Shown here: positions 1 through 47,424 of the stretch, piece after piece | How the letters are laid out: each line of letters opens with the position of its first letter | Numbering within the stretch: position 1 is the first letter of the stretch | Assembly: GCA_964532925.1 (NCBI GenBank) | Contig: CAZHIP010000001.1 | Coordinates: 126,621-190,620, forward strand | From: an uncultured Gammaproteobacteria bacterium | GTDB taxonomy: Bacteria; Patescibacteriota; Patescibacteriia; GWA2-47-26 | Length of the DNA stretch: 64,000 bases | Reading direction: 5' to 3' | Position numbers and translations under genes: made by a program | The notes under the pieces: generated by a model | Seen by the model: only the letters and a program-made list of their open reading frames with translations | Database searches by the model: none | Told to the model about the DNA's origin: nothing

Positions 1-153
1 GTGGAGTCAGCGTTGGCTTCCGCAGGGCTCAAGACCGCACGACTCGACACGCAAGGCCTTATTGAGCTCTATTACACGGTGTATAACCCCGAGACGTCCG
101 AACAACAGCCGCTCGTCAGTATCGATAAATTACAGGTAGCGACTCGCTACTAG
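1..153 (+). CDS. 3' end of an unidentified upstream CDS (partial), translationally coupled to the VirB4-like gene
   Basis: Frame 1 is open from the window edge to a TAG at 151-153, 2 nt before the next ATG. No recognisable motif in the 50 aa visible. Confidence 0.35.
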   Translation: MESALASAGLKTARLDTQGLIELYYTVYNPETSEQQPLVSIDKLQVATRY

Positions 154-155
154 GT

Positions 156-2039
156 ATGGCATTTTTCCAGAAAAAAAACTCAAACCCAACCACAACCGCT
201 CAATCAACGGAAGATCGTATTCAGATCGAAGAAGAGCGTGTCTATCGGCAAGGAGCAGTAACGGTCCGCGATATTATTGCACCTGCTTCGTTTGAGGTAA
301 CGCCCTCGTTTATCAAACTGGGTGATCAGTTTGTACGCACGATGTTTGTGGTGACCTATCCGCGATATGTTTCGGTTGGCTGGTTTGCACCGATTATCAA
401 TCTTTCGTTGCCACTCGACATGAGCATGTTTTTTTATCCGGTAAAGTCCGATGTCATTTTAAAACAGCTTAAGAAAAAAGTCGGCACGCTCGAAGCACAG
501 CTGTATTCCGACCAAGACAAAGGCGCACCACGTGATCCATTGCGCCAGACTGCGCTTCAGGATATCGAAAAACTTCGTGATGACTTAACGCAAGGGATTG
601 AGAAGTTCTTTCAGTTCGCGCTCTATGTAACCATTTACGCCAAGTCAAAAGAAGAGCTCGATAAAACTTCTGGTGATATCGAAGCAATGTTTGGTTCCAA
701 ACTCATTTATTCCAAAAAAGTGTTCTTCCAGGCGGAACAAGGATTTACCTCAACGACCCCATTGGGCATTGATGATCTTTTGGTTACCTTTAACATGAAC
801 TCTTCGCCGGTTGCTTCGTCGTTTCCGTTTGTCTCGGCTGACCTGACTTCTGATAATGGTATTTTGTACGGCATCAATCGTCACAATAACTCGCTCGTCT
901 TGTTTGATCGATTCTCGCTTCAGAATGCGAACATGGTGGTCTTTGCCACCTCAGGTGCTGGTAAAAGTTATGCCATTAAGCTCGAAGTGTTGCGTTCGCT
1001 CATGCTTGGTACGGATGTCATGGTTATTGACCCGGAAATGGAGTACAAGCACTTGTCTGACGCTGTTGGTGGAACGTATGTAAACATTTCTTTGGCATCT
1101 GATGCCAAACTGAACCCGTTTGATCTCCCGCGTCCGATTGGTGAAGAAGTTTCGACAGAAGATATTATCCGCAGCGCCGTTATTACCATTAAGGGCCTCA
1201 TGCGTATTATGCTTGGTGCATTTACGCATGCCGAAGATGCGCTTATGGATCGCGCACTGCTCGAGACCTATGCCAAGAAAGACATTACGCCACAGTCAGA
1301 TTTGCGCACCGTAGAAGCCCCGGTGTTGCAGGATTTACAAGAAGTGTTGGAGGGTATGGCTGGTGGCGCAGACCTTGCTGAGCGTTTGAAAAAATATACC
1401 ATCGGCACATTTGCGGGACTTCTCAATTCGCCGACCAACGTTGATGTCAAAAATCAACTCGTAGTGTTCTCTGTGCGTGACCTCGAAGACGAATTGCGAC
1501 CTATTGCGATCTACACCATCGTCAACTACATTTGGAATGTAGTGCGATCAGAATCAAAGCGCCGCATGTTGATCATCGATGAAGCGTGGTGGCTCATGCA
1601 GTATGAGGATTCGGCTAAGTTTATCTATGCGTTAGTAAAGCGATGTCGTAAGTATTATTTAGGTGTTACGACAATCACACAAGATGTAAACGACTTCCTT
1701 ACCAACCAATATGGCAAGGCTATTGTTACGAACTCTTCAATGCAGATGCTCTTAAAGCAATCACCAGCGGCGATCGATCTTATTCAGCAGACATTCATGC
1801 TTACCCAAGGAGAAAAGTATTTGCTTCTCGAGTGTGGTGTCGGCGAAGGCATTTTCTTTGCAGGTCAAAAACACGCCGCGATCAAGGTTGTCGCGTCGTA
1901 CACCGAAGACCAGCTTATTACCTCTGACCCTCGCCAATTGCTGGAGATTGAAAAGTCACGCAAAGACCTAGCTCGATCTCAGGAAAACCCAACAATCACT
2001 CAAGAACCATCGCCTCCAGCAGATTTGCCCATAGCTTAA
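156..2039 (+). CDS. virB4: VirB4/TrbE/TraC-family type IV secretion ATPase
   Basis: 627 aa. Walker A VVFATSGAGKSY and Walker B MLIIDEAWW are present. The N-terminal '...RTMFVVTYPRYV' region resembles Gram-positive-type VirB4 (PrgJ/TraE-like) proteins. Confidence 0.8.
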   Translation: MAFFQKKNSNPTTTAQSTEDRIQIEEERVYRQGAVTVRDIIAPASFEVTPSFIKLGDQFVRTMFVVTYPRYVSVGWFAPIINLSLPLDMSMFFYPVKSDVILKQLKKKVGTLEAQLYSDQDKGAPRDPLRQTALQDIEKLRDDLTQGIEKFFQFALYVTIYAKSKEELDKTSGDIEAMFGSKLIYSKKVFFQAEQGFTSTTPLGIDDLLVTFNMNSSPVASSFPFVSADLTSDNGILYGINRHNNSLVLFDRFSLQNANMVVFATSGAGKSYAIKLEVLRSLMLGTDVMVIDPEMEYKHLSDAVGGTYVNISLASDAKLNPFDLPRPIGEEVSTEDIIRSAVITIKGLMRIMLGAFTHAEDALMDRALLETYAKKDITPQSDLRTVEAPVLQDLQEVLEGMAGGADLAERLKKYTIGTFAGLLNSPTNVDVKNQLVVFSVRDLEDELRPIAIYTIVNYIWNVVRSESKRRMLIIDEAWWLMQYEDSAKFIYALVKRCRKYYLGVTTITQDVNDFLTNQYGKAIVTNSSMQMLLKQSPAAIDLIQQTFMLTQGEKYLLLECGVGEGIFFAGQKHAAIKVVASYTEDQLITSDPRQLLEIEKSRKDLARSQENPTITQEPSPPADLPIA

Positions 2040-2048
2040 CATTTTTGT

Positions 2049-2609
2049 ATGTCACGACGCAGTAAAGTACTTATTGGTATCACTGTCTTAGCAATAATTA
2101 TCGCCACGGTGGTTGCGTATTTATTGTGGAAAGATCGAGTAGTTCCTGTACCGAATGGTACTATTGCCCAAAATCAAACGCCAACAGCGGTAGAGGCTGT
2201 TCCGGGTGACCAGGTGCCTGCTACTACTCAAATCACCACGCCATTTGCCACTGCAGAAGCTACCGCTCGATCGTTTGTGGAGCGATGGGGGAGTTTTTCT
2301 ACGGAGTCAGATTTTCAGAACGTCCGTGATCTGTATTCTGTGATGACCTCTACGATGAAAACATGGGCAGATAGCTATGTTCGTGATCAGCGTAAAATAC
2401 AAGTTCCCGGGGACTTTTTTGGAGTGAGTACGCGAGTCATGAAAACGGAGGTGACCAAAGATACGGGAGATGCCGCGAAGGTGTTGGTGACTGCACAGCG
2501 CGTTGAAACAAAGGGCAGTATGGCACCGCGTAGTTATTATCAGACCATGGAAGTTTCACTCGTCAAAAATGGTAGCGGGTATTTAGTTGATGGCGCATGG
2601 TGGAAGTAG
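2049..2609 (+). CDS. hypothetical membrane-anchored protein (N-terminal TM helix)
   Basis: 186 aa. Hydrophobic helix LIGITVLAIIIATVVAYLLW. Starts 10 nt after the virB4 stop and its end overlaps the comFC start. Confidence 0.5.
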   Translation: MSRRSKVLIGITVLAIIIATVVAYLLWKDRVVPVPNGTIAQNQTPTAVEAVPGDQVPATTQITTPFATAEATARSFVERWGSFSTESDFQNVRDLYSVMTSTMKTWADSYVRDQRKIQVPGDFFGVSTRVMKTEVTKDTGDAAKVLVTAQRVETKGSMAPRSYYQTMEVSLVKNGSGYLVDGAWWK

Positions 2610-3304
2610 TTCAAAAAATGAAGGAGGCAATTTTTGATATTGTCTTTCCTATCGAATGTTTTCAGTGTGGTGTATATGGATCCTGGTGGTGTCAAAACTG
2701 CCAGGATTCTCTTGTGTTATTGCAAGACCGAACATGTCTGGGGTGCGGACGCAATGCAGTGCGTGGCGAGACTTGCTTTACCTGCTTGAAATCAGGATAC
2801 CCACTTGATGGTTTTTTGGCAGCGAGCGCGTACGATGAAGCTGCGGTGAAACAAGCCATTGGATATTTAAAATACAATGGTGTCCGTGATTTGGATGTGC
2901 CATTGGGCACTTTGATTGCGCGTACGTTTCTCGATTCTTCGATTGCGGAGGCATGGTGGCACATCATGTATGTACCGCTCCATGTGCGTCGCGAACGCAT
3001 GCGTGGGTTTAACCAGTCGGCGCGCCTTGCAGATGTTGTTTCACTTCAAACCGGCGTAGAAGTGTTGCCTTTATTAAACCGCATTCGAGCAACACACCCG
3101 CAACGGGAGCTCTCTGGAAAAGAACGCCGTGAGAATATGCAGAAGGATACATTTCGTCTGACAAACCCCGAGTTGGTAGCAGGGAAGAATATTCTTTTGA
3201 TCGACGATGTTGCAACAACAGGCTCAACGCTTACGGCCTGCGCACGAGTGTTAAAAACGGCCGGTGTTGCAAAGGTCGTTGGTTTAGTCGTCGCGCAAGG
3301 ATAA
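2597..3304 (+). CDS. comFC: ComF-family competence protein (ComFC-like: zinc ribbon plus phosphoribosyltransferase fold)
   Basis: 235 aa. N-terminal CxxC...CxxC pairs (CFQCG, CQNC, CLGCG, CFTC) and the PRTase signature LLIDDVATTGSTL. An alternative start is the ATG at 2618. Confidence 0.8.
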   Translation: MVEVVQKMKEAIFDIVFPIECFQCGVYGSWWCQNCQDSLVLLQDRTCLGCGRNAVRGETCFTCLKSGYPLDGFLAASAYDEAAVKQAIGYLKYNGVRDLDVPLGTLIARTFLDSSIAEAWWHIMYVPLHVRRERMRGFNQSARLADVVSLQTGVEVLPLLNRIRATHPQRELSGKERRENMQKDTFRLTNPELVAGKNILLIDDVATTGSTLTACARVLKTAGVAKVVGLVVAQG

Positions 3305-3332
3305 AGAAAAACCGCCCATGAGGCGGCATTCA
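3305..3332. terminator. bidirectional intrinsic terminator (stem CCGCC/GGCGG)
   Basis: AAAAAACCGCCcatgaGGCGGcatt. On the minus strand the same hairpin is followed by TTTTTCTTTAT, so it can end both the comFC operon and the minus-strand tRNA transcript. Confidence 0.5.
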
Positions 3333-3343
3333 CTAGCGTTCAT

Positions 3344-3440
3344 TCGGAGAGGGAGGGATTCCTCGGCCATCCGAGCCTCGCCGGGGCGCTGCGCACGCGA
3401 ACCTGCGCTTGCTCGGTTCTACTCGCGCCCTTCGAATCCC
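3344..3440 (-). other. tRNA-like remnant: an 18-nt exact copy of the tRNA-Ser(GCT) 3' end plus about 80 nt of GC-rich hairpins; not a foldable tRNA
   Basis: TCGGAGAGGGAGGGATTC at 3344-3361 is identical to 3467-3484, the 3' acceptor/T-arm region of the adjacent tRNA-Ser. There is no T-loop TTCGAAT and no matching 5' acceptor strand. Confidence 0.25.
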
Positions 3441-3465
3441 ATTATTTATTTTCACTTTGTTCAAT

Positions 3466-3555
3466 CGGAGAGGGAGGGATTCGAACCCTCGATACGGATT
3501 GAAACCCGTATAACAGGTTAGCAACCTGCCGCTTTCGGCCACTCAGCCACCTCTC
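3466..3555 (-). tRNA. tRNA-Ser (anticodon GCT), long variable arm
   Basis: Reverse complement reads GGAGAGGTGGCTGAGTGG...GGTTGCTAACC...GGGTTCGAATCCCTCCCTCTCCG. Acceptor GGAGAGG/CCTCTCC, anticodon loop TTGCTAA. Confidence 0.85.
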
Positions 3556-3572
3556 CAAGTAATACGGAAACG

Positions 3573-3601
3573 ATTATAGCCCAGCTAGTTGTTTTATTCA
3601 A
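3573..3601 (-). promoter_or_regulatory. sigma70-type promoter for the minus-strand tRNA-Ser (TTGAAT-17-TATAAT)
   Basis: Minus strand reads TTGAATaaaacaactagctgggcTATAAT, about 18 nt upstream of the tRNA 5' end. Confidence 0.6.
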
Positions 3602-3671
3602 CCGCGTGGTGTGAGGTAATGGTATTCTTAGCTTGTGCGATAACGAATACACAATGATTTTGCTATGGTGG

Positions 3672-3700
3672 TTGAACGAAACCCCAAGCTAGTATATAAT
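3672..3700 (+). promoter_or_regulatory. sigma70-type promoter for the plus-strand tRNA-Ser (TTGAAC-17-TATAAT)
   Basis: TTGAACgaaaccccaagctagtaTATAAT, divergent from the minus-strand tRNA promoter. Confidence 0.6.
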
Positions 3701-3738
3701 CTCGCCGTGGTCCTTATTGTGCTCTAATCGAGAATTGT

Positions 3739-3823
3739 GGAGGGGTGGCCGAGTGGTTTAAGGCAACGGTCTTGAAAACCGTCATGGCGCAAGTCATCGC
3801 GAGTTCGAATCTCGCCCCCTCCG
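3739..3823 (+). tRNA. tRNA-Ser (anticodon TGA), long variable arm
   Basis: GGAGGGGTGGCCGAGTGG...ACGGTCTTGAAAACCGT...GAGTTCGAATCTCGCCCCCTCCG. Acceptor GGAGGGG/CCCCTCC, anticodon loop CTTGAAA. Confidence 0.85.
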
Positions 3824-3825
3824 TA

Positions 3826-3858: not shown

Positions 3859-4767
3859 TTATCGGGATCGGTCGCGGCGGTCATTCTTCTTGCGGGATTC
3901 TTCGAGCTTGCTGTCTTCTTTTTCTTCATCGTCATCGGGAACAGAGACATTAAGGTCTTTTTCTGCTTTACGGATGACCTCATGTTCACGTTTTTCGCGA
4001 CGAGCGCGTTGTTTTGAGCTAAAGGATGAGTCTTTGGGTGCGGTATTGCTCATCTTGTCTGTCACGACCGGTTCTTTTTGTGTACGAGTAGCATCTTGGT
4101 CGTCATCACGCTTGTCCACGCGTTCTTCGAGGTTTTGTCGGCGAGCATTCATGAAGCGTTCACTCTGCTCAATTGTTTCTATTATTCCTGCGGTTTCCTT
4201 TTGTGATTTTTTCATTTCTCGCAAGATTTTTTTGTGCGCATTGAGCGGTGCTTCGATGTTTGAACTTGCTTCCGCTGCGGCTTGAATGTTACCAGAGCGC
4301 TCCATGGTATCGATAGATTTTTGAATACGCTCTGTGTGCGCATTGATATCGAGATTCAGTGCAGAGAGTGTCTGTGGGTCAAATTTCTGTTGAGCGATTT
4401 TTTCTGCTTCAACGAGGCGGCGCTCAAGACGGCGTGTTTCCCAGGCGGCTTTTGCAACTGGTGTTCGTGCAATGGCGGAGCGGACTTCCTCGGTAACGTG
4501 TACCTTCACAGGGTACAGTACGTCTCCTGGCATGGTTCTTTCAGCAGCCGCAGCAACCCCACTACTTACGAGCGCTACGACGAGCGCAAGGCTAATACTC
4601 GTTGTGAATGAACGATGGAGGGTAAAGAAAGTCGACCATGCTGTTCTTGGTTTGATGTCGCCCACGCCAAGGAGCGTAGTAAAATGCGAACGCATCGCAG
4701 CGTGATCAGCGGGGGTGAGCACGATGCGATGTGCATCCTTGATCAGTTGTTTGAAAGACTTATTCAT
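3859..4767 (-). CDS. single-pass membrane protein downstream of the ECF sigma gene; putative anti-sigma factor (DUF5667-like)
   Basis: 302 aa. One TM helix (ISLALVVALVSSGVAAAA), a cytoplasmic N-terminus and a highly charged, coiled-coil-like C-terminus. Its start overlaps the sigma factor stop by 8 nt. Confidence 0.5.
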   Translation of the reverse strand: MNKSFKQLIKDAHRIVLTPADHAAMRSHFTTLLGVGDIKPRTAWSTFFTLHRSFTTSISLALVVALVSSGVAAAAERTMPGDVLYPVKVHVTEEVRSAIARTPVAKAAWETRRLERRLVEAEKIAQQKFDPQTLSALNLDINAHTERIQKSIDTMERSGNIQAAAEASSNIEAPLNAHKKILREMKKSQKETAGIIETIEQSERFMNARRQNLEERVDKRDDDQDATRTQKEPVVTDKMSNTAPKDSSFSSKQRARREKREHEVIRKAEKDLNVSVPDDDEEKEDSKLEESRKKNDRRDRSR

Positions 4768-5272
4768 ATGTTCCTAATTTGTCTCGGAGTCGTTTCAGTG
4801 CTCGATGTAAGCGTACAGAGACTATATTTTCTGATTCATCGGTAATGGTCGCAATTTCTTTTGGTCCAAGTCCGTTGATGTATCGGAGCACGATTACTGT
4901 TTTGTGTTTTTCGTCGAGCAGTGAATCGAGTTGTGCAATAATCTTCTTTCCGTCTATGGTTCCAAATATATTTCGTTCGTCATCAACACTTCCTACGTCA
5001 AAGCCAGTTTCTTCTTGCATGGCGTCGAGGGATTCCGCTGTCTTTTTCTTGTGCTCGTTGATAATGCAATTCGTTGCGGTTTTATACAGCAAGGCTCGAG
5101 GGTTATCAATGGTGTTCCCGGCGCTCGCGTATTGCCAAACGCGAGTAAACACCTCCTGGGTCAAGTCTTTGGCGCGTTCATAATCGTAGACGCGAAAGTA
5201 ACAATGGCGAAAAATCGCATCGCTCCACGAGTCATACCAGGAGATAAATTGTTCTTCTATTGGTTTGCCCAT
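4760..5272 (-). CDS. RNA polymerase sigma-70 family, ECF subfamily sigma factor
   Basis: 170 aa. Region-2-like DLTQEVFTRVWQ and region-4 helix-turn-helix ATITDESENIVSVRLHRALKRLRDKL. Confidence 0.85.
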   Translation of the reverse strand: MGKPIEEQFISWYDSWSDAIFRHCYFRVYDYERAKDLTQEVFTRVWQYASAGNTIDNPRALLYKTATNCIINEHKKKTAESLDAMQEETGFDVGSVDDERNIFGTIDGKKIIAQLDSLLDEKHKTVIVLRYINGLGPKEIATITDESENIVSVRLHRALKRLRDKLGTYE

Positions 5273-5459: not shown

Positions 5460-6191
5460 ATGAAACATTCACTAAAAACATATGTTGGTGCAGGTGCAAT
5501 GATCTTGTCTCTTGTTGCCATGATGCCATTTTCAGCTCTTGCAAGTAACGGCCAAGGCAAAAATCGCGATCACTCGGTGTCTATTCGTCCACAAATCGAT
5601 GTGCGTGAAACTGTGCAGGTTAATCCCAATGGTGAGGTTACGTTGCGCGGAGCTGTGAAGAGTGTTGGCACAGCAAGTTTGATAGTGAAAAGCTGGGGTG
5701 GGGATTGGACCATCAACATTGGTACGGGTGTGAAATTAATTTCTCGCGCAAACGCGGTGCTTGTTCTTGCTGATATGAAAGTTGGCGACGTAGTCACCGT
5801 GCATGGATCCATGAAACCGAATGCTGGTTTAACCGTGGATGCACGTCAGATTAAAGATCAGTTTATTCCTGATCGTGCAGTAGTAGTTCGCGGAACCATT
5901 GCATCGATTGATGCGAACACGCTGACAGTAAAGAGCGGTGATGCAACATGGACAGCAACCACTGCTGCAACCACGAAGTTCGTTGCTAAGTTTGGTGGTG
6001 TCACTACGCTTGCTGCAATGAAGGTTGGCGACGAAGTCATGGTCAAAGGTGTCTTGGCCGCTGGTTCAACCACCGCAATACAAGCAACAGAGATAAAAGA
6101 TATCTCACTCGTGTTGACGGTTGAAAAACCAAAAAAGATTAAGATGGACGATGACCGGTTTGATGATCGAGGTGGGCGCAAAAATCAGTAA
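5460..6191 (+). CDS. secreted protein with two tandem repeats of about 100 aa (DUF5666-like)
   Basis: 243 aa. Signal peptide MKHSLKTYVGAGAMILSLVAMMPFSALA. Internal repeat VRG.V.S...KVGD.V.V.G...IKD occurs twice. A TAGAAT -10 element lies 12 nt before the ATG. Confidence 0.5.
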   Translation: MKHSLKTYVGAGAMILSLVAMMPFSALASNGQGKNRDHSVSIRPQIDVRETVQVNPNGEVTLRGAVKSVGTASLIVKSWGGDWTINIGTGVKLISRANAVLVLADMKVGDVVTVHGSMKPNAGLTVDARQIKDQFIPDRAVVVRGTIASIDANTLTVKSGDATWTATTAATTKFVAKFGGVTTLAAMKVGDEVMVKGVLAAGSTTAIQATEIKDISLVLTVEKPKKIKMDDDRFDDRGGRKNQ

Positions 6192-6720: not shown

Positions 6721-6752
6721 TGCGTAGAACGAGCGGTTTTCCATCAAAGTGT

Positions 6753-6824
6753 GCCCTCGTCGTTCAATGGATAGGACACAAGCTTGCGGAGCCTGTGATA
6801 TAGGTTCGATTCCTATCGAGGGCA
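6753..6824 (+). tRNA. tRNA-Arg, anticodon read as GCG (unusual)
   Basis: GCCCTCGtcGTTCaatggataGGACaCAAGCttGCGgaGCCTGtgatATAGGttcgattCCTATCGAGGGCa. Acceptor GCCCTCG/CGAGGGC, T-arm ATAGG-TTCGATT-CCTAT, one A/C mismatch in the anticodon stem. Folded by hand. Confidence 0.6.
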
Positions 6825-6847
6825 GATTTTAGTGGAATACCAAACAA

Positions 6848-7651
6848 CTAGGGGAGCAGATAATACTGCTTCCTTTTTTGTATAAGACCTTCTGTTTCGA
6901 GTCCAGAAAGCACTTTTGCTAAGATTGCTGGGTCAGCATTAATCTCTTTTTGCATCGAGAGAAGAGTCATTTGTTCTTTGGATGTGAGCAATTTTAAGAT
7001 ATTCCCGCGTATCTGTCGGGTTGAGCCTTCAAATGCTGATTGCCGTACATAATGAGCACTCTGCCGATTGGGGTTTACAACTGTCTTTGGAAGAATCGAT
7101 CCGTAGTCCATAAGCGCGCTGTACCATTCTCTGGCTCGGTTGTGGGGTAGTGATTTTTCTACCAGTGGCAAAAGTTTTTTGTCAGACACGTTTTTTGTGC
7201 GCGGAAAAAAATGATGAATAAAAACGCGGCGAATGTTGGTTTCGATAAATACTACAGGGGTGTTAAACGCAAATGCAGGAATCGAACGCGCTGTTGCTGG
7301 CCCAATACCAGGAAGCTTCACTAGTTCTTCTGGGGTATTGGGTAAGATGCCATTATAATCACGCACAATAATCTGTGCTGCGCGATGCAGAAATAATCCG
7401 CGACGGTTATAGCCAAGTCCTTGCCACGCCTTCAAAACATCACCAGCGGTTGCGTTCGCTAACGCTTGGAAAGAAGGAAACTGCTCTGTGAATTCTTTGT
7501 ATTTTATGATGACGCGTGGCACCTGAGTCTGTTGAAGCATGACCTCGGAAATGAAAATACAATAGGGGTCAGTGGTATGACGCCACGGTAGATCACGGCC
7601 ATGTTTTTTATAGTAATCCCAAACGAGTGCTTGAAAGGCTTTGATCTCCAT
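6848..7651 (-). CDS. mutY: HhH-GPD base-excision glycosylase, MutY/endonuclease III-like, apparently lacking the [4Fe-4S] cysteine cluster
   Basis: 267 aa. The N-terminus (LPWRHTTDPYCIFISEVMLQQTQV) matches the MutY helix-hairpin-helix core. The whole protein has only one Cys. Confidence 0.7.
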   Translation of the reverse strand: MEIKAFQALVWDYYKKHGRDLPWRHTTDPYCIFISEVMLQQTQVPRVIIKYKEFTEQFPSFQALANATAGDVLKAWQGLGYNRRGLFLHRAAQIIVRDYNGILPNTPEELVKLPGIGPATARSIPAFAFNTPVVFIETNIRRVFIHHFFPRTKNVSDKKLLPLVEKSLPHNRAREWYSALMDYGSILPKTVVNPNRQSAHYVRQSAFEGSTRQIRGNILKLLTSKEQMTLLSMQKEINADPAILAKVLSGLETEGLIQKRKQYYLLP

Positions 7652-7688
7652 ATCAGACAGATTTTTAGTATGCTACCATACTTTAGAT

Positions 7689-9791
7689 ATGTTGACCCCT
7701 GAATCTCTCGTAGGCGCTTTGAGCCCTGTTGCACGGCCGGTAGCTAAGCAGCTCGCCACACTCGGGATTATGACCGTGCGCGATCTTTTGTATCACTTTC
7801 CGCGGCGATACGAGGACTGGAGTCATGTTGTCGCGCTCGATGAGCTCCAACCCGGCAACGAAGTGACGGTACATGTGTTTGTCGAACAAATTCGAAGCTG
7901 GCGGACAAAAACGCGTAAACTTACCATTACCGAAGCGGTTGTCCGCGATGCTAGTGTGGATGCAGAAGGCGTGCCGCGGGGGATTATAAAAGTGGGTTGG
8001 TTTAATCAGCCATTTTTGATAAAAAATATTCCAGCTGGCACAGAAGTGTATTTAGCTGGACGTGTTGATCCGCGGGGTGATTGGCTTATGACCGCACCTA
8101 TGGTGGAACGAGTACCCACGGGAGTGCGCGGATCAATTCATACGGCTGCGATTATCCCCATGTATCCTGCAACCGAACGGATTACACAGAAACAGATTCG
8201 TTTTCTCATGAAGATGGCACTGCGCGTTGTGCCGCAGATGGTTGAATGGTTGCCAGACGCTATCATGAAACAGTTCGGGTTTTTGCATCTATCGAACGCA
8301 CTCTCAGCGCTGCATTTTCCAAAATCACAAGACGAGCTTGACCAGGCACTTGCGCGGTTTAAATTTGAAGAACTATTGTTGCCACAACTCTATTCGGCTA
8401 TGATGCGCGAAAAGATTCGTACCGAGCGGGCTATTGTGGTGCCATTTCAAGAAAATATCACGAAGGGGTTTGTTCAAAGCTTGAGCTTTCAGCTGACGGA
8501 AGACCAGCGCCGTACCGCATGGGAGGCGCTCCAGGATATGCAAAAAAGCTACCCAATGAACCGACTTGTAGAAGGCGAGGTTGGTTCGGGTAAAACGGTG
8601 GTCGCAGCCATTGCGGCGCTCAATGCGATTAAGGCAAAAGCTCAAGTGGCGATTTTGGCGCCGACAGAAATTCTTGCTGTCCAGCATTACGCAACACTTT
8701 CAAAAATGCTCGGGAGTCATGGCGTGCGTGTTGCACTTTTAACAGCAAACCATATTCGATTTGGTGGGGATGAGGGGTTTTTGTTTAAGAATAGTTCTCA
8801 AAAAGGAACAGCATGTCGCGAGATGGTTGCAGATGGCGTCATTGATCTTATTATTGGCACCCACGCGCTCATTGAAGATGCGGTGAGTTTTGCAAAACTA
8901 GGGCTTGCGATTATCGACGAACAGCACCGATTTGGTGTTCGTCAGCGCGAAGCGTTGCGGAAAAAAACAGGAGGTAAGCACACGCCACATTTGCTCGCAC
9001 TTTCTGCTACGCCGATTCCACGAACGCTAGCGCTTGCGTTTCTTGGTGACATGGCGGTTTCGCAAATGCGTGCGATGCCGAGTGGTCGAGCAAAAATTGT
9101 TACAGAAATCGCTACCGACGCGAACCGCGCACATGTGTACAAGCGCATGCGGGAGACTGTTCTACGCGGTGAGCGTGTGTACGTGGTGTGCCCGCTGATT
9201 GATCCGAGTGAATTGGTTGGTGCTTTGCGGTCGGTGGCGCATGAAGAAAAAGAATTGGAAAAAGAGTTTAAGGATCAGGTGACGATTTTGCATGGGCGCA
9301 TGAAACCAGATGCACGCGAACAAGCCATGCAGGACTTTAAAGATGGCAAAAAACCAATACTCGTGAGCACGACGGTAATTGAGGTCGGCGTTGATGTGCC
9401 ACTCGCTACACTGATTGTGATTATTAATGCCGAACGATTTGGTCTGGCACAATTGCATCAGTTGCGTGGGCGCGTTGGCAGAGGGAATCGTCCGGGCTCA
9501 TGTGTGTTGATAAGTGGCATTATGGGCGGCCCGCCGTATCAACGATTACGTGCGTTTATAGATTGTAACGACGGGTTTGAGCTTGCAGAAAAAGATCTGG
9601 CGCTTCGAGGCCCTGGTGAAGTATGGGGGACTGATCAGTCGGGGTTTCCGACCTTCCGTATTGCGAGTGTGCAGGATCAAAAAATGATGATGGAAGCGCG
9701 AAAAGTCGCCGATGAGCTTATTGGTGATATACAAAAATATCCTTTACTTCAAAAACGATTAGAAGATTTCGCACGAGCTAGGCAGAGTTAG
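7689..9791 (+). CDS. recG: ATP-dependent DNA helicase RecG
   Basis: DEQHRFGV helicase motif, GSGKT P-loop and a wedge-domain N-terminus. The ORF is open from 7641, but Met at 7689 (MLTPESLVG...) avoids a head-on overlap with mutY. Confidence 0.85.
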   Translation: MLTPESLVGALSPVARPVAKQLATLGIMTVRDLLYHFPRRYEDWSHVVALDELQPGNEVTVHVFVEQIRSWRTKTRKLTITEAVVRDASVDAEGVPRGIIKVGWFNQPFLIKNIPAGTEVYLAGRVDPRGDWLMTAPMVERVPTGVRGSIHTAAIIPMYPATERITQKQIRFLMKMALRVVPQMVEWLPDAIMKQFGFLHLSNALSALHFPKSQDELDQALARFKFEELLLPQLYSAMMREKIRTERAIVVPFQENITKGFVQSLSFQLTEDQRRTAWEALQDMQKSYPMNRLVEGEVGSGKTVVAAIAALNAIKAKAQVAILAPTEILAVQHYATLSKMLGSHGVRVALLTANHIRFGGDEGFLFKNSSQKGTACREMVADGVIDLIIGTHALIEDAVSFAKLGLAIIDEQHRFGVRQREALRKKTGGKHTPHLLALSATPIPRTLALAFLGDMAVSQMRAMPSGRAKIVTEIATDANRAHVYKRMRETVLRGERVYVVCPLIDPSELVGALRSVAHEEKELEKEFKDQVTILHGRMKPDAREQAMQDFKDGKKPILVSTTVIEVGVDVPLATLIVIINAERFGLAQLHQLRGRVGRGNRPGSCVLISGIMGGPPYQRLRAFIDCNDGFELAEKDLALRGPGEVWGTDQSGFPTFRIASVQDQKMMMEARKVADELIGDIQKYPLLQKRLEDFARARQS

Positions 9792-10978
9792 CAGCCTCCG
9801 CCAAGAAGACTAACTTTGATCAAAGCTTCTTTGCTTTTTTGTAAGACAGTTGCGATGTCGCCGGTTGCACTTTTTTGGAATCCGCCTTCGGGTCGTCGGT
9901 TGAAATGCCATGGTTCGAAAGCTTTACTGCAAACATTTGTGTCCATGAGTACACCATATCCATTTGCAAGCATTGCGCCAATCAGCTTGATTTGGCATTC
10001 ATTTGTAGCCCAACATAAGCGCCCCGCAGAGGTTGTAATACCAGGACAAGTTCCGCAACCTGGGCCAGTAGCAAATAGGTCAAGTGAGTTTACATGTGTG
10101 CATCCGGCATAGGCTGGGTTTGGTTGATCTTTTCCCAGCCACATTTTTGGGTTTGATGCAGTCGCTACAGAACAGTTTACGTAGTTGCGCTTGAGCTCGC
10201 TCCATTCGCAGCGTTTTTTTACTAAGTTAATCTGCGTATTCATGCTTCGTGCGCCGGATCCGCGGATACCTAGTCCTAGAGAACTCATGACTTGCGCAGC
10301 CTTGAGTAGGGGTTGTTGATTGAACTGTGTTGTTAAAAGGCTACGCGATAATGCACCTTGCGCGGTAACTTGAGTGATAGGCGATCGCTGGTTTTCTGGC
10401 CAACGTGTATTTACCCAACCAACTCCACACAGTGGGTCGGGAGTGCCACCATCCCCTTCGTCATCGGGTGTAGTTGCATCTTCAACGTCATCAATCTCTT
10501 CGTATTGCACCAGTTTAATTTTCAAATTTTTGAATGTCACAAGATCGGGATTGATTATAAAGAGAACAGTATACGACCCGAGTGCAAGTATGAGACCAAC
10601 TAATGCACCACTAATGCGTTCTTTTGCATGTTTAATTTTTCCGGCATCGCCGGCAGCCAGAAGCCACTGAAAGCCTGCAATAACAATTATGACGCCTGCC
10701 ATGACGCCTGCTACTCCAATCAGATATTTATAGAGCATAGCAAAATATTCTGCCATGTAGGGGATGTAGCCGTAGGCTGTGGTTTGGCCGTCGCTCGTTG
10801 TGTCTGCGGTTAAGATTTTTGAAAATTTAAAATCTGGGGCAATGGGAATCTGAAGTTTTGGTTCAATTGAGTTTAGTGTTGTTGGTTCTGGGTCGGCAGC
10901 GTGAACAGGAGAAGAAGGACGGGTGAATGCGCCGCCAACTAGTAGAAATATTGCTAAGACAAAAAAAATCTTTCTCAT
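9788..10978 (-). CDS. secreted/membrane fusion protein: TrbC/VirB2-pilin-like two-helix hairpin plus acidic linker plus Cys-rich LAS-family (M15/VanY-like) metallopeptidase domain
   Basis: 396 aa. Signal peptide, then two TM helices separated by GDAGKIKHAKER, then a 10-Cys C-terminal domain with THVNSLD and EPWHFNR motifs resembling the H-x-D and E-W-W-H motifs of D-Ala-D-Ala carboxypeptidase (VanY) family enzymes. Confidence 0.45.
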   Translation of the reverse strand: MRKIFFVLAIFLLVGGAFTRPSSPVHAADPEPTTLNSIEPKLQIPIAPDFKFSKILTADTTSDGQTTAYGYIPYMAEYFAMLYKYLIGVAGVMAGVIIVIAGFQWLLAAGDAGKIKHAKERISGALVGLILALGSYTVLFIINPDLVTFKNLKIKLVQYEEIDDVEDATTPDDEGDGGTPDPLCGVGWVNTRWPENQRSPITQVTAQGALSRSLLTTQFNQQPLLKAAQVMSSLGLGIRGSGARSMNTQINLVKKRCEWSELKRNYVNCSVATASNPKMWLGKDQPNPAYAGCTHVNSLDLFATGPGCGTCPGITTSAGRLCWATNECQIKLIGAMLANGYGVLMDTNVCSKAFEPWHFNRRPEGGFQKSATGDIATVLQKSKEALIKVSLLGGGC

Positions 10979-11631
10979 GGTATATAGTTTTGTATCGCGT
11001 CTTCGATATCGCCTTTGTCAAAACTGCCGCGTGCCTTACCAATAAAGAAGTAGGGAGTCGCATCAACATTGAGTGCAACACCTTCTGCAATCGTAAGATC
11101 GATCATTTGCGCCGTGATTGCGGAAGCAAGGCACGTATCGAAGGATGTCTTGTTGAGTTTTAGCTCTTCTGCGATGAGCGTGAGGCTACCCATGTCGACG
11201 ATTTCATCTTGACGCTCAAAGAGTGTGTCATGAAATTCCCAATATTTTCCTTGTGCACCAGCGCAGCGGGCGGCGATGGCGGCATTGCGGGCAAGAGGGT
11301 GGATTTTCGTATTTGGCATGTCTTTCCAGATGAGTCGAATGCGTGGATTGTTTTTCATGAGTTTCTGAATCGCGGCGTGTGCATCAACGCAGGAAGGGCA
11401 AAAGTAATCGCCAAATTCGACAATGGTAATATCAGCAATTTTACTACCGCGCACTGGGTCGGTGCCGCCAATGATGGGGGAAGCTAAGATTAGTTTTTCT
11501 TGCTGGGGAGTGGTAGGTGTTTTTGGGGTTGCGGGATTCCAAATGAGGTAGCCCCAGGCACCGACAATCAAAGCCAAAAAACACAAACCACCAAGTACGA
11601 GCCCGTTGTGTTTGTGTGAAAGAGTATTCAT
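10975..11631 (-). CDS. dsbA: DsbA-family thiol:disulfide oxidoreductase (thioredoxin fold, membrane-anchored)
   Basis: 218 aa. N-terminal TM helix and active site FCPSC. Its stop overlaps the start of the Cys-rich gene downstream (ATGA). Confidence 0.75.
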   Translation of the reverse strand: MNTLSHKHNGLVLGGLCFLALIVGAWGYLIWNPATPKTPTTPQQEKLILASPIIGGTDPVRGSKIADITIVEFGDYFCPSCVDAHAAIQKLMKNNPRIRLIWKDMPNTKIHPLARNAAIAARCAGAQGKYWEFHDTLFERQDEIVDMGSLTLIAEELKLNKTSFDTCLASAITAQMIDLTIAEGVALNVDATPYFFIGKARGSFDKGDIEDAIQNYIP

Positions 11632-42357: not shown

Positions 42358-45300
42358 TTATGCGAGCGCCTTGATTGCAAGGCCGAGAATAGCGCGAACA
42401 AGGAGGAGATTTACGCCAACGAGGAGGAGAACTTGCGCTGCAAAGTGCCAGCGAGCAAAGCGAGTATAAGAGTGGTCAATGATGCCAGTTTCGTTCGGCG
42501 AGGCCATGCGTGAGAATCCTTGGGCGCTGTGGCGGGTAAGTACAGAAGGGAGCGCCAGGAAGCTCTTTAAGTAACCTTTGAGACCCTTGCGGCGGCCTGC
42601 AGCGCGTACCATGACACCACTTGATACCACGAACCCTGCAAATGACGCAGCAGCGATTGGTGGGATTAAGTCATTCGTAGTTTGAACTGGTGCAGATTCA
42701 AGTACATCAGAAAGAGGGCCACTTGGTGAAGTAAGTGCACCTGGGGTAGTTGGGATATTTTCAAAACCTGCCGCGTCAGGAGTCACATCTTGTGTTGTAG
42801 TGGTGGCAACAGTGGTACCAGCAAGAGCCATCCAGTTGAAGGGACCAAAGCTAACGCCATCCATCGAGCGGACAGTAAACGCTGTTGCGGTTTGTGATGC
42901 AATGAATAGGGCAGCAGGAGTATTTGTTGAAGTGATAAACGCCTGGTAATTGCCGCCGACTGCATCTGAAAAATTTGTTGGCAGAGTAATGATGACTTCT
43001 TTGAGGGCATCAGTGAGTTCTGCACGACCAGAGATGAAGGAGGGGGTGCCGAGGGTAACCATTGGTGATGGAGTTGTTGCAGGTGTGGGTGTGGTGGAGT
43101 TGGTGGTTGTCGTTGCCACTGGGGTTGTTGCGGCAGTAGCGGCAGCGCTCTGGTTTAGGTTCACGAGCATAAGCACCTTACCTGTGCCTTGTCCGTTGAA
43201 GCTTTCAAGGGCCATACCAACAGTTGTTCCAGCTTGAGTTGCTTTCATGGCAGTACCTGGGGTTGATGATGAGGTGAGATAGTCGCCAGGAGCAATAGCA
43301 CCATTTTCTGCTGTGACTTTTACGGGAACACGGCCAGCGAGCGCCAGAGGGAGTGGGTGAGCTGACTTCTTCTTTAAATCTTCACCAAGAATTTGGTATG
43401 GAGCTGATGAAATTACACCCGTTATGTTTGATTGATATGGCGTAGAGCTCTTTACCATAATAGGCACGGTTTCATCTTCACCGGCAATAATTTTTTGGAA
43501 GTTGTTGGGATCGCGCTCGATACCCTGGTAGCTTACTGTTTTTGTTCCGAGCGCAACAAGATCGCCTTCAGAAACAGTACCGTCAGTTTCGTACCACTCG
43601 GCCAAGTCAGAAGGAGCACCGTTACAGTCTTCGAGTTGTGCGGATCCTTCGGTGCCTGACCAACACAGGCCTGCAGTGGAAGAAGCAACTGTTGCGTTTA
43701 CTGTGGTGCGACCAGTCGAGGAAACGCCGAATAAGGTTGCATCAGCAGAACTCGTTATGGTGAGAAGGTTTGCGGATTGAGATCCAGCACCCTTAATAAA
43801 GAGCCCAACGCGCGACGCTGATTGGTTGTAGACCGCAAGCTGCCCGCCCGGTGGGTTTGCGTATTGGCCAACTGCGACACCGGTCGACATGACTTGGAGT
43901 GCTAGCGTGTCATCAAATGTCGATGATTGTGTATAAAAAGCATGATAGCCAATGCCTGAATAGTTAATGTTTCCTGCATAATCAAAACGCCACGCAGATT
44001 TGAGCACACCATTAAAGGATGTCGAGAGCATTGTTTGGCCGCTACCGCTTGTATTTGCGAGTTCAAGAGCTGAGTTGGCAATAGAAACGGTTGCGTTGGT
44101 GTTGCCGTACGAGAGAGTAGTGAGCCCGGAGTTAATGGTGGAGGTGCCCACACCAAGTTTCGTGGCGACATTGAGCGTGCCATCAGTCTTGATGGTGTTC
44201 GCTGCAGAGCGATAGAGGTTGGAGGATGCCTCTCCAAAATTTAGACCCGCAGCAGCCGTAGTGCCTGATCCGCCACCAATGGTGAGTGCAACGGATGGGG
44301 TGGTATTGTTGATGCCGACGTTTCCGACGTCGAAGATACCTGCATATTTTGTTCCACCACCTGTTGCGGTTGCATACATGCCAACACTGGTGCTTGCGGC
44401 ATCAGCTTTAAAGTAGCCGCCGTAACCCGTAGTCATGGTGCCGCCGTTTAAGTTATCTGCAACGCCGTATACGCCGTAGGCTGTTGTGACGTTGGCGACT
44501 TCACTACCGGTTTGTGCTGCGCTATACGTACCAAACAATGAGGGTAGTGTGAGAGTACCATCAGCACTGGTAGCAAGTGTCTTTGTGCCAAAGGCACCCT
44601 GGGTTACGGTGTTTGCGTTGGAGTTTACAATAAGGGTTGAGTTTGTACCTATGAGAGCAAAAGCGTTACCGTTGCCATTTACGTCACTGGTGAAGAAATT
44701 ATTGATTCCGTAGAGAGTGCCACCTTGCACCAAATTTCCATTGTACGTTTGGCTAATTTGTAAGGGTACTGGTGGGTAAGTGATACCTGTAACCGAAGCC
44801 GTCTTGCCTACCTCAAGAAGAGCGGAGGGGTTGGCGGTGCCGATACCGACGCCGACACCATTGATAGCCATCTTCGTTTGGGGTGTGCGATCCGTGGTGC
44901 CGGTCGTGGTTGCATCAGGGGTTTTGAAAAGTATATTTGATGTCCCTGACCCAGTGGAGATACCAGAAGTCAGCACAAGATCTCCGCCAGATTGGTCTGT
45001 GCCCCCAGATTGCCCGCCACCAGCATTGATAGTAAGGCCTTTTCCTGGCCATGCGCCAGATACGCGGCCCATACCAATAGTTTGGTCTTCATCTGCAAAT
45101 AAATCGATATTGCGAGCTGGGTCACCTCCAGTTTGGGATAGCCCCATAAAAATACCTTGGGAGGCAGTACCAAGAAGAGTAAGACTGCGCATCGAAGTAT
45201 CAGATGTGCCAGAATTGCCTGGTTGCGGGACTTGAAGGTAGATTTTTGATGTTCCAGAGCCTGTAGCGATACCAGAGGTGAGAGTGAGGTTGCCACCATT

Positions 45301-47424
45301 TGTATTCGATTCAGAAGTTTTGGCTCGACCAGCCTTTACGGTGAGACCCCCTCCTGGGCCACTACCGGTCTTTTCGCCAATACCAAATGCGATATCTAAA
45401 TCGCCCTGATAAATTGTATTACCTGTTCCATCGATGGTTAGTCTGGTTGAAGGATCTTTGTCACCTGTGCCAGAATTACCACCGCCTGCAGTCATGAATT
45501 CGATATTTGATCCGCCGTTACCTGTTGCGATACCGGTTGAGAGGGTTAGGTTTCCCCCTGTTTGGTTTGCAATGCCCGCCTTAGCACCACCACCTCGAAT
45601 CATTAGAGCTTGTCCATTATCAGAGGGGGAAGCTTGTCGCTCAAGGCCGATAATTTTTTCACCATTACCGCTAAAAGAAAGATCATAACTCGGAGCAGTG
45701 GTACCGATACCAATTCTTCCATTTTCAAAAATTGCCGCGTAGTTATTTTGTGCACCAGAGGCAGAGGCGTAGAGGCCGACATTCGTTAAGTCGTTGCCAC
45801 CGGTGGAGCGAGATGATGTATTGTTGAAATAGCCAGCATAGTTGGTTAGGGAGCCGCCGGTTGTGTTAAAAGTCGCAAAAGAAGCAGCATCGACAACTCG
45901 CTTGTTGTTTCCGTTAAGGCCGGTTCCACGATTGTCAAAGTAGGCGGCGTTACCTAAGCCGGTGTTCATAACATACAGAGGGGAGCCTTCGAATGCGCTT
46001 TGGCCGGATAGCTCAAGAATGGCGGAGCCAGCTCCATTGGCTTCCATTTTAATACCCCAACCAGATCCTGTGCCATCAAAATTCCAACCCCATGTTTGGC
46101 TATAGTTGCCATTTCCAATGTTGTTGGTGCTTGTTGCGGCAGTTAGAGCAGAAAGCGTGGAGCCACCTCCTATAGGAGAACCGTTTACAGTGAGAGTACC
46201 CGTAACGTCCACCGTATCATTGGTGACCGTAAGAACCGATCCATTGTTAAAACCGACCTTAAATGTGCTGGCGGTGTTGTTGGTAAAGCCAGATCCGATA
46301 GCAATCGCGTTGTTTGCAGATGCGGTGAGGGAGCTCCCAATTGCAATCGTATTGTTGGCTGATGCTGTTACAGAGCTACCCAAAGCAATCGCACTGCCGC
46401 CACTTGCTGTAGACTCGCCCCCCAAGGCAATAGACGAATCACCACTTGCTGTGTTTAGGAATCCCGCGGCAAACGACTGGCCACCGCTCGCTGTAGACTT
46501 CATGCCCATAACAGTACTTGCAAGACCAGAAGCATTTGTTTCTAGACCGAATGCAGAGGCACTTGCTCCGCCTGCACGGGAGTTGATCCCTGCTGCAAAC
46601 GAGCCTGGCCCTACATTTGCGGCATCCCAATAGGCACTACCATTCGTAAATCCTTCAAGAACCGTCATGTCGCCAATGGATCCAGCGCGGAAGGCGCCTT
46701 TTGATGGATTCCAGAGAATTTTACTGCCGAGCGATGAAACACCTGCGGTTGCAATGTCTGTGCCAGCAAAGCTTGCTGTGCCGGTGCCTTCAATTCCATA
46801 ATCTTCGCCAAGTAGTAGACCGCCAGAAATAGAATTGAAAGGTACAGGGTTTCCAGCGGTTAGGTCTTGGACACCAACAGATAAGTTGTTTGATACATAA
46901 AAGTCATTCTGGGAACGTTCTGCGAATTTTGCGCGGTTTGCTAAAGGTGCAGTGCCAATGTCTTTCCGCGGAGTCATTTCACTTTCTGTGCATGTGGTTG
47001 TTATGGGTGTATCACCTACACCACAGACAGTGACGCCCAGAGTAAATGCATCTGAGTCATATTCATATAGTGCATCCGGAAGAGCTGTTTGTCCCGAATC
47101 GCCTAGATAGACCGAAAAAAAACCGTTTTGGACCGAAATGGAGACAGATTTTCTGCTTTGTTCTGTATTGCCGCAACCAGTAGTATCACCTACAAGTACG
47201 CCTGCACCCCACAAACAACCGCCGTCACGGTAGAGGGCAAACTTCATTTGATAGGTGCCATTAGCAACCGCGACACCATTTGGATCAGTCAATTTTCCAA
47301 TATATTGGATTTTTGGTAGAGGGTTTTCTGCTGCTGCAAAATGGGGATTTGTGAGTGAAAATAAAAACGCAACCGCTGCAATTGCGAGAAAAGTGGTGCC
47401 AATATTGCGACGATGTTTTTGCAT
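42358..47424 (-). CDS. giant (1688 aa) repeat-rich surface protein with YadA-head-like (Hep/Hag-type) Gly/Ser/Ala repeats, Thr-rich linker and C-terminal TM anchor; candidate adhesin
   Basis: Signal peptide. Degenerate repeats of the type SIALGGESTASGGSAIALGSSVTASANNTIAIGSSLTASANNAIAIGSG, also visible as 39-42-nt tandem periodicity near 46290-46440. Thr-rich TTPVATTTTNSTTPTPATTP linker. Terminal hydrophobic helix AAQVLLLVGVNLLLVRAILGLAIKALA. Confidence 0.7.
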   Translation of the reverse strand: MQKHRRNIGTTFLAIAAVAFLFSLTNPHFAAAENPLPKIQYIGKLTDPNGVAVANGTYQMKFALYRDGGCLWGAGVLVGDTTGCGNTEQSRKSVSISVQNGFFSVYLGDSGQTALPDALYEYDSDAFTLGVTVCGVGDTPITTTCTESEMTPRKDIGTAPLANRAKFAERSQNDFYVSNNLSVGVQDLTAGNPVPFNSISGGLLLGEDYGIEGTGTASFAGTDIATAGVSSLGSKILWNPSKGAFRAGSIGDMTVLEGFTNGSAYWDAANVGPGSFAAGINSRAGGASASAFGLETNASGLASTVMGMKSTASGGQSFAAGFLNTASGDSSIALGGESTASGGSAIALGSSVTASANNTIAIGSSLTASANNAIAIGSGFTNNTASTFKVGFNNGSVLTVTNDTVDVTGTLTVNGSPIGGGSTLSALTAATSTNNIGNGNYSQTWGWNFDGTGSGWGIKMEANGAGSAILELSGQSAFEGSPLYVMNTGLGNAAYFDNRGTGLNGNNKRVVDAASFATFNTTGGSLTNYAGYFNNTSSRSTGGNDLTNVGLYASASGAQNNYAAIFENGRIGIGTTAPSYDLSFSGNGEKIIGLERQASPSDNGQALMIRGGGAKAGIANQTGGNLTLSTGIATGNGGSNIEFMTAGGGNSGTGDKDPSTRLTIDGTGNTIYQGDLDIAFGIGEKTGSGPGGGLTVKAGRAKTSESNTNGGNLTLTSGIATGSGTSKIYLQVPQPGNSGTSDTSMRSLTLLGTASQGIFMGLSQTGGDPARNIDLFADEDQTIGMGRVSGAWPGKGLTINAGGGQSGGTDQSGGDLVLTSGISTGSGTSNILFKTPDATTTGTTDRTPQTKMAINGVGVGIGTANPSALLEVGKTASVTGITYPPVPLQISQTYNGNLVQGGTLYGINNFFTSDVNGNGNAFALIGTNSTLIVNSNANTVTQGAFGTKTLATSADGTLTLPSLFGTYSAAQTGSEVANVTTAYGVYGVADNLNGGTMTTGYGGYFKADAASTSVGMYATATGGGTKYAGIFDVGNVGINNTTPSVALTIGGGSGTTAAAGLNFGEASSNLYRSAANTIKTDGTLNVATKLGVGTSTINSGLTTLSYGNTNATVSIANSALELANTSGSGQTMLSTSFNGVLKSAWRFDYAGNINYSGIGYHAFYTQSSTFDDTLALQVMSTGVAVGQYANPPGGQLAVYNQSASRVGLFIKGAGSQSANLLTITSSADATLFGVSSTGRTTVNATVASSTAGLCWSGTEGSAQLEDCNGAPSDLAEWYETDGTVSEGDLVALGTKTVSYQGIERDPNNFQKIIAGEDETVPIMVKSSTPYQSNITGVISSAPYQILGEDLKKKSAHPLPLALAGRVPVKVTAENGAIAPGDYLTSSSTPGTAMKATQAGTTVGMALESFNGQGTGKVLMLVNLNQSAAATAATTPVATTTTNSTTPTPATTPSPMVTLGTPSFISGRAELTDALKEVIITLPTNFSDAVGGNYQAFITSTNTPAALFIASQTATAFTVRSMDGVSFGPFNWMALAGTTVATTTTQDVTPDAAGFENIPTTPGALTSPSGPLSDVLESAPVQTTNDLIPPIAAASFAGFVVSSGVMVRAAGRRKGLKGYLKSFLALPSVLTRHSAQGFSRMASPNETGIIDHSYTRFARWHFAAQVLLLVGVNLLLVRAILGLAIKALA

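Follow-up and report, generated by a model that had tools for sequence, protein, structure and literature searches.

What is a gene of the ComF family doing at the end of a secretion operon? The question is raised by one end of a 64,000-nucleotide (nt) stretch of contig CAZHIP010000001.1 (assembly GCA_964532925.1), here called the window, where the last genes of a type IV secretion system (T4SS) run directly into comF. We are very nearly certain that positions 1-3304 are the distal end of a chromosomal operon for the T4SS of the Patescibacteria clade. This T4SS, which is typical of the ultra-small Patescibacteria, is akin to the MPF-FATA systems of monoderm bacteria, and the organism is an ABY1-class bacterium belonging to the candidate phyla radiation (CPR), Uhrbacteria- or Magasanikbacteria-like. 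The operon encodes, in order, a polytopic VirB6-like protein, two uncharacterised proteins, VirB3/PrgI, TrsD, VirB4, a VirB8-like protein and ComF; comF is predicted to be its last gene, co-transcribed and translationally coupled. This T4SS and its association with comF were already published in 2025 (PMC12102498). New here are a VirB8-like gene, assigned by structure, which is universal among the ABY1 loci sampled and lies directly downstream of virB4, and the position of comF as the directly adjacent, often overlapping terminal gene, which goes beyond the published association within ±20 coding sequences.

The gene order was read from three loci together: L001, a 9.4-kb Logan contig that is 100% identical to the window across the shared genes and adds 5.9 kb upstream, and the close relatives L082 and L083, each with a VirB4 that is 96% identical. 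Relatives of this VirB4 are encoded in at least 599 stretches of GTDB species-representative genomes. Our sample for the analysis of synteny comprised 83 loci, that is, 80 distinct GTDB species plus L001, L082 and L083, and the fractions given for adjacency refer to the 56 loci whose sequence continues downstream for 2.2 kb or more.

The ATPase open reading frame (ORF) begins 2 nt past the TAG at 151-153, as the initial annotation of this DNA had stated, and its Walker motifs are intact, as was also claimed: Walker A (ATSGAGKS, amino acids (aa) 264-271, nt 945-968) and Walker B (LIIDE, aa 472-476, nt 1569-1583) are both invariant among 20 homologues. The 627-aa product scores 339.3 bits, above the cutoff of 325, against the NCBIfam model NF045971 ('VirB4-like conjugal transfer ATPase, CD1110 family'), and also matches Pfam P-loop_TraG (9e-29) and the VirB4 structure 4ag5 in PDB (E 5.5e-45). 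Homologues from Uhrbacteria, Buchananbacteria and 'Parcubacteria' are 74-80% identical. The label VirB4 thus given to this ORF earlier is right as to family and motifs, but the ORF is only about the C-terminal three quarters of a VirB4, spanning positions 170-730 of the 752 in the CD1110 model, and the N-terminal domain lies in the upstream gene. That gene reaches the window as ORF 1-153, with a weak match to Pfam TraC_F_IV, and is complete on L001 (5369-6055), where its 228-aa product matches the NCBIfam TrsD model (4.8e-7), the Mbov_0397 VirB4 N-terminus (2e-11) and positions 1-97 of CD1110. A separate TrsD-like ORF lies 5' of VirB4 in 80 of the 83 loci, so the split between TrsD and VirB4 is ancestral and not the result of a frameshift. 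A frameshifted or pseudogenised VirB4, which was considered, is ruled out on this count and by the documentation of the split in the literature.

The initial annotation proposed a search upstream for VirB6- and VirB3-like genes, and L001 has a VirB3 gene and a putative VirB6-like one, separated by the two uncharacterised genes. VirB3/PrgI is a 144-aa ORF lying just outside the window (Pfam PrgI, 35.8 bits, cutoff 27). The VirB6-like ORF, which exceeds 815 aa on L001 and has 945 aa in L083, has no match in Pfam or NCBIfam, and is tentatively assigned from its several N-terminal hydrophobic segments and its conserved position. Between these two genes, at 2467-4900 of L001, are two proteins of about 380 and 429 aa that have homologues in most loci and no family match in Pfam or NCBIfam. 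Members of the 429-aa family, which has a proline-rich linker, occur in nearly all of the 83 loci. Both proteins are candidate lineage-specific components of the T4SS.

The gene that follows virB4 encodes a 186-aa protein, and it does so after a short gap, as had been described, although the gap is of 9 nt and not 10. The single transmembrane helix reported for it is present at the N-terminus (about aa 8-27, nt 2070-2129), and is followed by a disordered linker and an NTF2-like domain (aa 65-185, nt 2241-2603). In Pfam the protein matches nothing, in NCBIfam it has only a weak match to a type VII secretion system model, and word-indexed homology searches gave 12-18 relatives. A search by fold resolved it as a VirB8-like protein with the NTF2 fold. 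Orthologues are only about 16-33% identical, and the gene lies directly 3' of VirB4 in all 56 loci with enough downstream sequence. VirB8 homologues detected by hidden Markov model (HMM) were few in the published survey and nearly all from ABY1 (PMC12102498). In three loci of a clade without adjacent comF (L039, L064 and L079) the order is VirB8-like, pilin, a VirB8-like paralogue (p186 family) and DsbA, which suggests that a pilin/VirB8 module has been duplicated.

The last gene, comF, was annotated as starting within the end of the 186-aa ORF, and the overlap is one of 13 nt; an alternative in-frame ATG at 2618 would give an 8-nt gap in its place. Its product has a Cys4 zinc finger (C21/C24/C32/C35, nt 2657-2701), a second zinc ribbon and a loop for binding phosphoribosyl pyrophosphate (PRPP), LLIDDVATTGST, at nt 3194-3229. 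Across 30 syntenic orthologues the four cysteines are invariant, a motif of the type PVPLH..R..ERGFNQ is conserved and the DDVxTTGxT loop is near-invariant; orthologues are about 27-39% identical overall. Two Pfam domains are found above cutoff, DZR_2 (28.5 bits, cutoff 27) and Pribosyltran (36.2 bits, cutoff 26.3). The alignments to TIGR00201 comF (E 2e-24) and GntX (PRK11595, E 4e-26) are full-length, with scores of 86.5 and 92 bits, which are under the curated cutoffs of 233.55 and 304. The single sequence had no match among PDB structures, and a profile matched only the PRPP loops of PRPP-utilising enzymes together with H. pylori ComF (7p0h, E 7e-4). Given the full-length alignments, the sequence is best read as that of a divergent member of the ComF family and not of an outsider.

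The linkage of comF to the T4SS is conserved well beyond chance. ComF is encoded on the same strand and directly after the VirB8-like gene in 38 of the 56 loci with enough sequence, and in 52 loci overall. The ComF ORF abuts or overlaps the VirB8-like ORF in 22 of these 52 and starts no more than 100 nt past the VirB8-like stop in 43, the median distance being 5 nt. In a neighbour-joining tree of VirB4, loci with adjacent ComF are found throughout, about three clades have something else in its place, and adjacency is the widespread and apparently ancestral state. Where ComF is missing, the slot is taken by RadA followed by a convergent RecG, or by pilin/DsbA genes followed by RadA and RecG. 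The flanks upstream of the operon are scrambled, with no family found in more than six of 37 loci. Because ComF and VirB8-like orthologues are so divergent and the upstream flanks differ, the junction between T4SS and comF has outlived substantial divergence and rearrangement around it. The physical coupling of comF to the operon of the T4SS ATPase that had been proposed therefore stands, in that the genes are co-oriented and tightly spaced and ComF is next in line in 52 loci. The accompanying statement that such coupling is unusual does not, the arrangement being that of the majority in ABY1-class Patescibacteria and having been reported in 2025 (PMC12102498).

Set beside known systems, the locus differs in nothing categorical from the Patescibacteria-clade T4SS. 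A VirB4 clade that is specific to Patescibacteria and related to MPF-FATA was described by Quiñonero-Coronel et al. (2025, Microb Genom), with TrsD as the most abundant associated component and with PrgI/VirB3, VirB6 and VirB2-like pilins included; comF, recG and radA were noted in loci of the ABY1 class (PMC12102498). The system described here shares the MPF-FATA-related VirB4, the adjoining TrsD-like protein, PrgI/VirB3 and a VirB2-like pilin, with a putative VirB6-like protein, as well as the chromosomal location without relaxase or adjacent coupling protein; comF and recG, which together with radA belong to the loci of ABY1, are close by. In the SEML1_0006-0019 locus of Southlakia, peptidase and lysozyme genes are found downstream of virB4, where the window has comF. 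Among the conjugative MPF-FATA systems (pGO1/pSK41 Trs, pCF10 Prg, CTn2 CD1110 and pIP501), the likeness lies in a VirB4 that reaches the CD1110 cutoff, in the split of pGO1 type into TrsD- and TrsE-like proteins, in the PrgI-like VirB3, and in a VirB8-like NTF2 protein comparable to PrgL, TraH, TraM and TcpC. Unlike them, the window system has a VirB2-like pilin and comF, lacks a relaxase, a coupling protein and an oriT context, and is chromosomal and vertically conserved between housekeeping flanks.

The comF operons of Bacillus and Streptococcus offer another comparison, since there too a ComFC-type gene lies immediately downstream of, and coupled to, genes of ATPases for membrane translocation. 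The partner in the window is a VirB4-type ATPase with a VirB8-like protein, however, and not the DEAD-box ComFA, of which no homologue was seen in the window. That ComFC normally partners with ComFA, as the initial annotation had it, is a feature of Firmicutes and not one that defines ComF. Features of the locus and its neighbours are collected in the table.

Table. Features of the T4SS-comF locus and of neighbouring genes in the window
Feature	Position	Strand	Basis or remark
TrsD-like gene, 3' end, 50 codons	1-153	+	full protein 228 aa, the separate N-terminal domain of VirB4
VirB4-family T4SS ATPase, C-terminal part of split VirB4, 627 aa	156-2039	+	CD1110, P-loop_TraG
VirB8-like bitopic membrane protein, 186 aa	2049-2609	+	transmembrane helix, linker, NTF2-like domain
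ComF/ComFC-family protein, 235 aa	2597-3304	+	DZR_2, Pribosyltran, TIGR00201/GntX alignments
G+C-rich hairpin and T-run	3311-3327	-	terminator scan: 7 pairs then TTTTTCTTTAT
tRNA-Ser(GCT), convergent with comF	3465-3557	-	ARAGORN and Rfam
RecG helicase	7641-9791	+	Pfam RecG_wedge, DEAD, Helicase_C, RecG_dom3_C
VirB2-like T4SS pilin-domain protein, domain aa 82-133	9788-10978	-	Pfam T4SS_pilin PF18895
DsbA-like thioredoxin-fold protein	10975-11631	-	Pfam Thioredoxin_4 2e-18, DSBA 8e-13; beside pilin gene

No promoter-like site was found from 1210 to the start of comF (2597), but a consensus for CPR promoters is not established and an internal comF promoter is possible; within the first 4 kb, the sites that most resemble promoters are those of the two tRNA-Ser genes. 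The hairpin downstream of comF had been taken as the terminator that closes the unit, and it does mark the end of the comF transcription unit, but it is oriented for the convergent tRNA-Ser. In L082 it is kept: there it comes after the comF stop and before the convergent tRNA-Ser(GCT) gene, some 20 nt beyond the 3' end of that gene in its direction of transcription. Because of this position and because its T-run is on the minus strand, the hairpin is predicted to be primarily the intrinsic terminator of tRNA-Ser(GCT). Read on the plus strand, it lacks a U-tract and would give comF a weak or bidirectional stop at best.

Three tRNA genes follow in the window at 3465-3824 and 6752-6825, for tRNA-Ser(GCT), tRNA-Ser(TGA) and tRNA-Arg(GCG). 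The same trio is found 3' of comF in five of six relatives (L082, L002, L032, L072 and L074), with varying order and strand; L003 has two tRNA-Ser genes only. Synteny of this tRNA block may account for part of the conservation of the comF linkage. In L082 a gene for a 190-aa protein and a cupin gene lie between both tRNA-Ser genes, which suggests that this interval is a variable spot. The window itself has a 121-nt, partly G+C-rich insertion at 3344-3464, exactly at the 3' end of tRNA-Ser(GCT), which is absent from L082. It is bracketed by two identical 17-nt copies of the tRNA's 3' end, AATCCCTCCCTCTCCGA, in direct orientation at 3344-3360 and 3465-3481, with none expected by chance. It may have been left behind by an integrative element, or be a small insertion for which the tRNA end served as target. 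A structured RNA or pseudo-tRNA in 3333-3464 was considered and rejected, with no match in Rfam, a fold z-score of -0.24 and a core sequence that is unique in the window.

Further along, RecG is encoded within 10 kb downstream of the T4SS in 25 loci. The initial annotation suggested that the ATPase serves a pilus-like apparatus, and the gene of the VirB2-like pilin-domain protein, some 6.5 kb downstream, fits this. The match to PF18895 is a marginal pass (27.0 bits, cutoff 26.6); a match at the same position is found in L082, in 16 loci homologues are neighbours of RecG or of the T4SS operon, and the protein is probably part of the same T4SS. DsbA-like genes are found after VirB8-like or pilin genes in 16 loci. 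A tblastn search of the window for RadA gave no match.

What, then, might the association of a T4SS with ComF be for? The mechanism that we find most likely, although we put its chances at somewhat below even, is that the T4SS of ABY1, with its VirB2-like pilus, is a conduit for contact with the host that has DNA among its cargoes, and that ComF receives single-stranded DNA (ssDNA) from it. VirB4 together with TrsD and VirB3 would power assembly or translocation at the membrane, and the VirB6- and VirB8-like proteins would form the channel. ComF, produced stoichiometrically with the T4SS, would take the incoming ssDNA at the cytoplasmic face and hand it to recombination, through RadA and RecG, whose genes are neighbours, and through DprA/RecA encoded elsewhere. 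RadA has a part in transformation as well, and the genes that replace ComF in its slot, radA and recG, are themselves genes of DNA recombination, which supports such a mechanism. The explanation as a whole, namely the end of a T4SS operon with a coupled comF and import of DNA, is the best that we can offer and falls just short of an even chance. A stricter version, in which ComF docks on the inner-membrane complex of VirB4, TrsD and the VirB8-like protein to take host-derived ssDNA, which RadA and RecG from the same supercluster would process, so that an essential T4SS would double as a Com-linked importer, seems unlikely to us. If true, it would give a monoderm analogue of ComB with ComF built into the T4SS operon, and a concrete function for the T4SS of CPR bacteria.

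The model is an analogue of the H. pylori ComB system acting with ComEC/ComFC. Both are T4SSs without VirD4 or VirB11, used for import in the case of ComB and proposed for import in the window. ComB differs in belonging to a diderm, with an outer-membrane core of VirB7/9/10 that is not present in the window system, and uptake by ComB has been shown experimentally, whereas for the window it is inferred from gene linkage only. To our knowledge, comFC does not lie within the comB operons of H. pylori. ComB passes DNA to ComEC, a precedent summarised in a FEMS review (PMC12857230), and ComF-family proteins handle ssDNA downstream of uptake (PMC10633639).

Several observations weigh against import of DNA by this T4SS. 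The ComF assignment is itself below the curated cutoffs of NCBIfam. The linkage is lost in about 30% of the sampled species and confined to one class (PMC12102498), and neither comEC, dprA nor comEA is present in the cluster or anywhere in the 64-kb window. In Southlakia epibionticum, of the Saccharimonadia, epibiotic growth requires the T4SS and its pilins, whereas ComEC, ComF and DprA make no contribution to fitness, and deletion of comEC abolishes transformation (Wang et al. 2023, PMC10633639). Since the T4SS is essential there and the Com genes are not, its core function would not be Com-dependent DNA uptake. The FEMS review agrees with this conclusion and attributes natural competence in that organism to type IV pili (PMC12857230).

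Several of these observations favour the first rival, which we regard as nearly as likely as the import of DNA and to which we likewise give rather less than an even chance. Here comF, like radA and recG, would be an ordinary single-copy gene of competence or recombination that in this streamlined lineage has become fixed as the 3'-terminal gene of an essential operon with strong expression, and the T4SS would move proteins or other host-derived molecules, or serve in attachment, with no mechanistic tie to ComF. The separable phenotypes in Southlakia (PMC10633639), the restriction of the adjacency to one class (PMC12102498) with losses in several clades, and the lack of ComEC and DprA nearby are all as expected from co-expression alone. 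Moreover, the block of comF, tRNA-Ser, tRNA-Ser, tRNA-Arg and RecG is syntenic, and part of the pattern may be phylogenetic inertia. Against this, the median gap of 5 nt with frequent overlaps is tighter than a passive neighbourhood predicts, the junction persists despite the scrambled upstream flanks, and the genes that replace comF are again those of DNA recombination, which would be unlikely for random hitch-hikers.

A different role for the protein itself, which we consider improbable, is that of an active phosphoribosyltransferase in nucleotide salvage and not of a competence factor; it would be expressed together with a T4SS through which nucleobases or nucleotides are taken from the host. 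The loop that binds PRPP is intact and is conserved, the profile matches in PDB are to PRPP-utilising enzymes and to the PRPP loop of H. pylori ComF only, the scores for the comF and GntX models are under their curated cutoffs, and Patescibacteria lack de novo nucleotide synthesis (PMC10633639). The protein nevertheless has the full-length architecture of ComF, with the invariant Cys4 finger and the KY and ERGFNQ motifs, and the HMM alignments span nearly the whole of the comF and GntX models. We know of no member of the ComF family with transferase activity, and the adjacent genes are of the recombination type and not of salvage.

The last alternative is that the cluster belongs to, or is left over from, an integrative and conjugative element or a plasmid whose relaxase, coupling protein and integrase genes lie outside the window. 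VirB4, PrgI and TrsD are homologous to conjugation proteins of Gram-positive bacteria, and duplicates of a tRNA 3' end such as the one just downstream can mark sites of integration. We scanned about 48 ORFs of the window against profile families. As the initial annotation had noted from the sequence, there is no relaxase, VirD4-type coupling protein or integrase among them, and the scans also used for relaxase gave no match of the T4SS-DNA_transf, TraG or FtsK type. The ORFs that match a family are housekeeping genes: PheRS, DnaE, ThrRS, SecA, SHMT, FolD, SerRS, LysRS, GreA, PBP2, GAPDH, EF-Ts, S2, RF1, FtsW, GyrB, NusG and L1. A complete conjugative element immediately upstream, which the annotation had named as evidence against its reading, was found neither in the 6 kb of L001 nor in the 10 kb of L083, for which no relaxase, coupling protein or integrase is on record. 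Upstream of the VirB6-like gene, 37 loci have ORFs that match EngA, Pth, LytR, aminoacyl-tRNA synthetases and similar families, and relaxase is not one of the 25 families seen most often there, out of 53 of Pfam with a match. Along the whole window the GC content stays level at 45-50%. The T4SS-comF unit is no conjugative or mobile element, because the window is of housekeeping character without relaxase, coupling protein or integrase, and the view that the apparatus serves something other than conjugation holds. With a VirB4 that is 70-80% identical over hundreds of species and always chromosomal, housekeeping genes on both flanks, no mobility genes in 62 kb downstream, a sole tRNA-end repeat that brackets only 121 nt, and relaxases near only 15 of 2,474 virB4 genes in the published survey (PMC12102498), an origin as a mobile element is extremely improbable and effectively refuted already.

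Other features of the window touch this question less. On the minus strand, the gene of an ECF-type sigma factor (4760-5272) and that of a DUF5667 protein (3859-4767), possibly an anti-sigma factor, overlap, and a DUF5666 protein is encoded at 5460-6191, divergently from the sigma factor. L082 likewise has the genes of the sigma factor and the DUF5666 protein downstream of comF; there the counterpart of the DUF5667 protein has no Pfam hit on record. Between PBP2 and GAPDH there is an ORF of 1688 aa (42358-47424, minus strand) without a match in Pfam, which may represent a type of large unannotated protein common in CPR genomes. Of 32 intervals of 2 kb, 31 have a positive GC skew, and the cumulative curve climbs almost monotonically over 1-64000. 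Since the skew is positive almost throughout, the 64 kb lie on one replichore and cross neither origin nor terminus.

The locus is thus typical of a system already in the literature, and our results are mainly a confirmation of it with two refinements, the universal VirB8-like gene and comF as the terminal gene, predicted to be translationally coupled. The T4SS of Patescibacteria is ubiquitous in the phylum and essential in the one species tested. If the linkage with comF, radA and recG is mechanistic, it would point to contact-dependent acquisition of DNA from their hosts by bacteria that are unable to make nucleotides.

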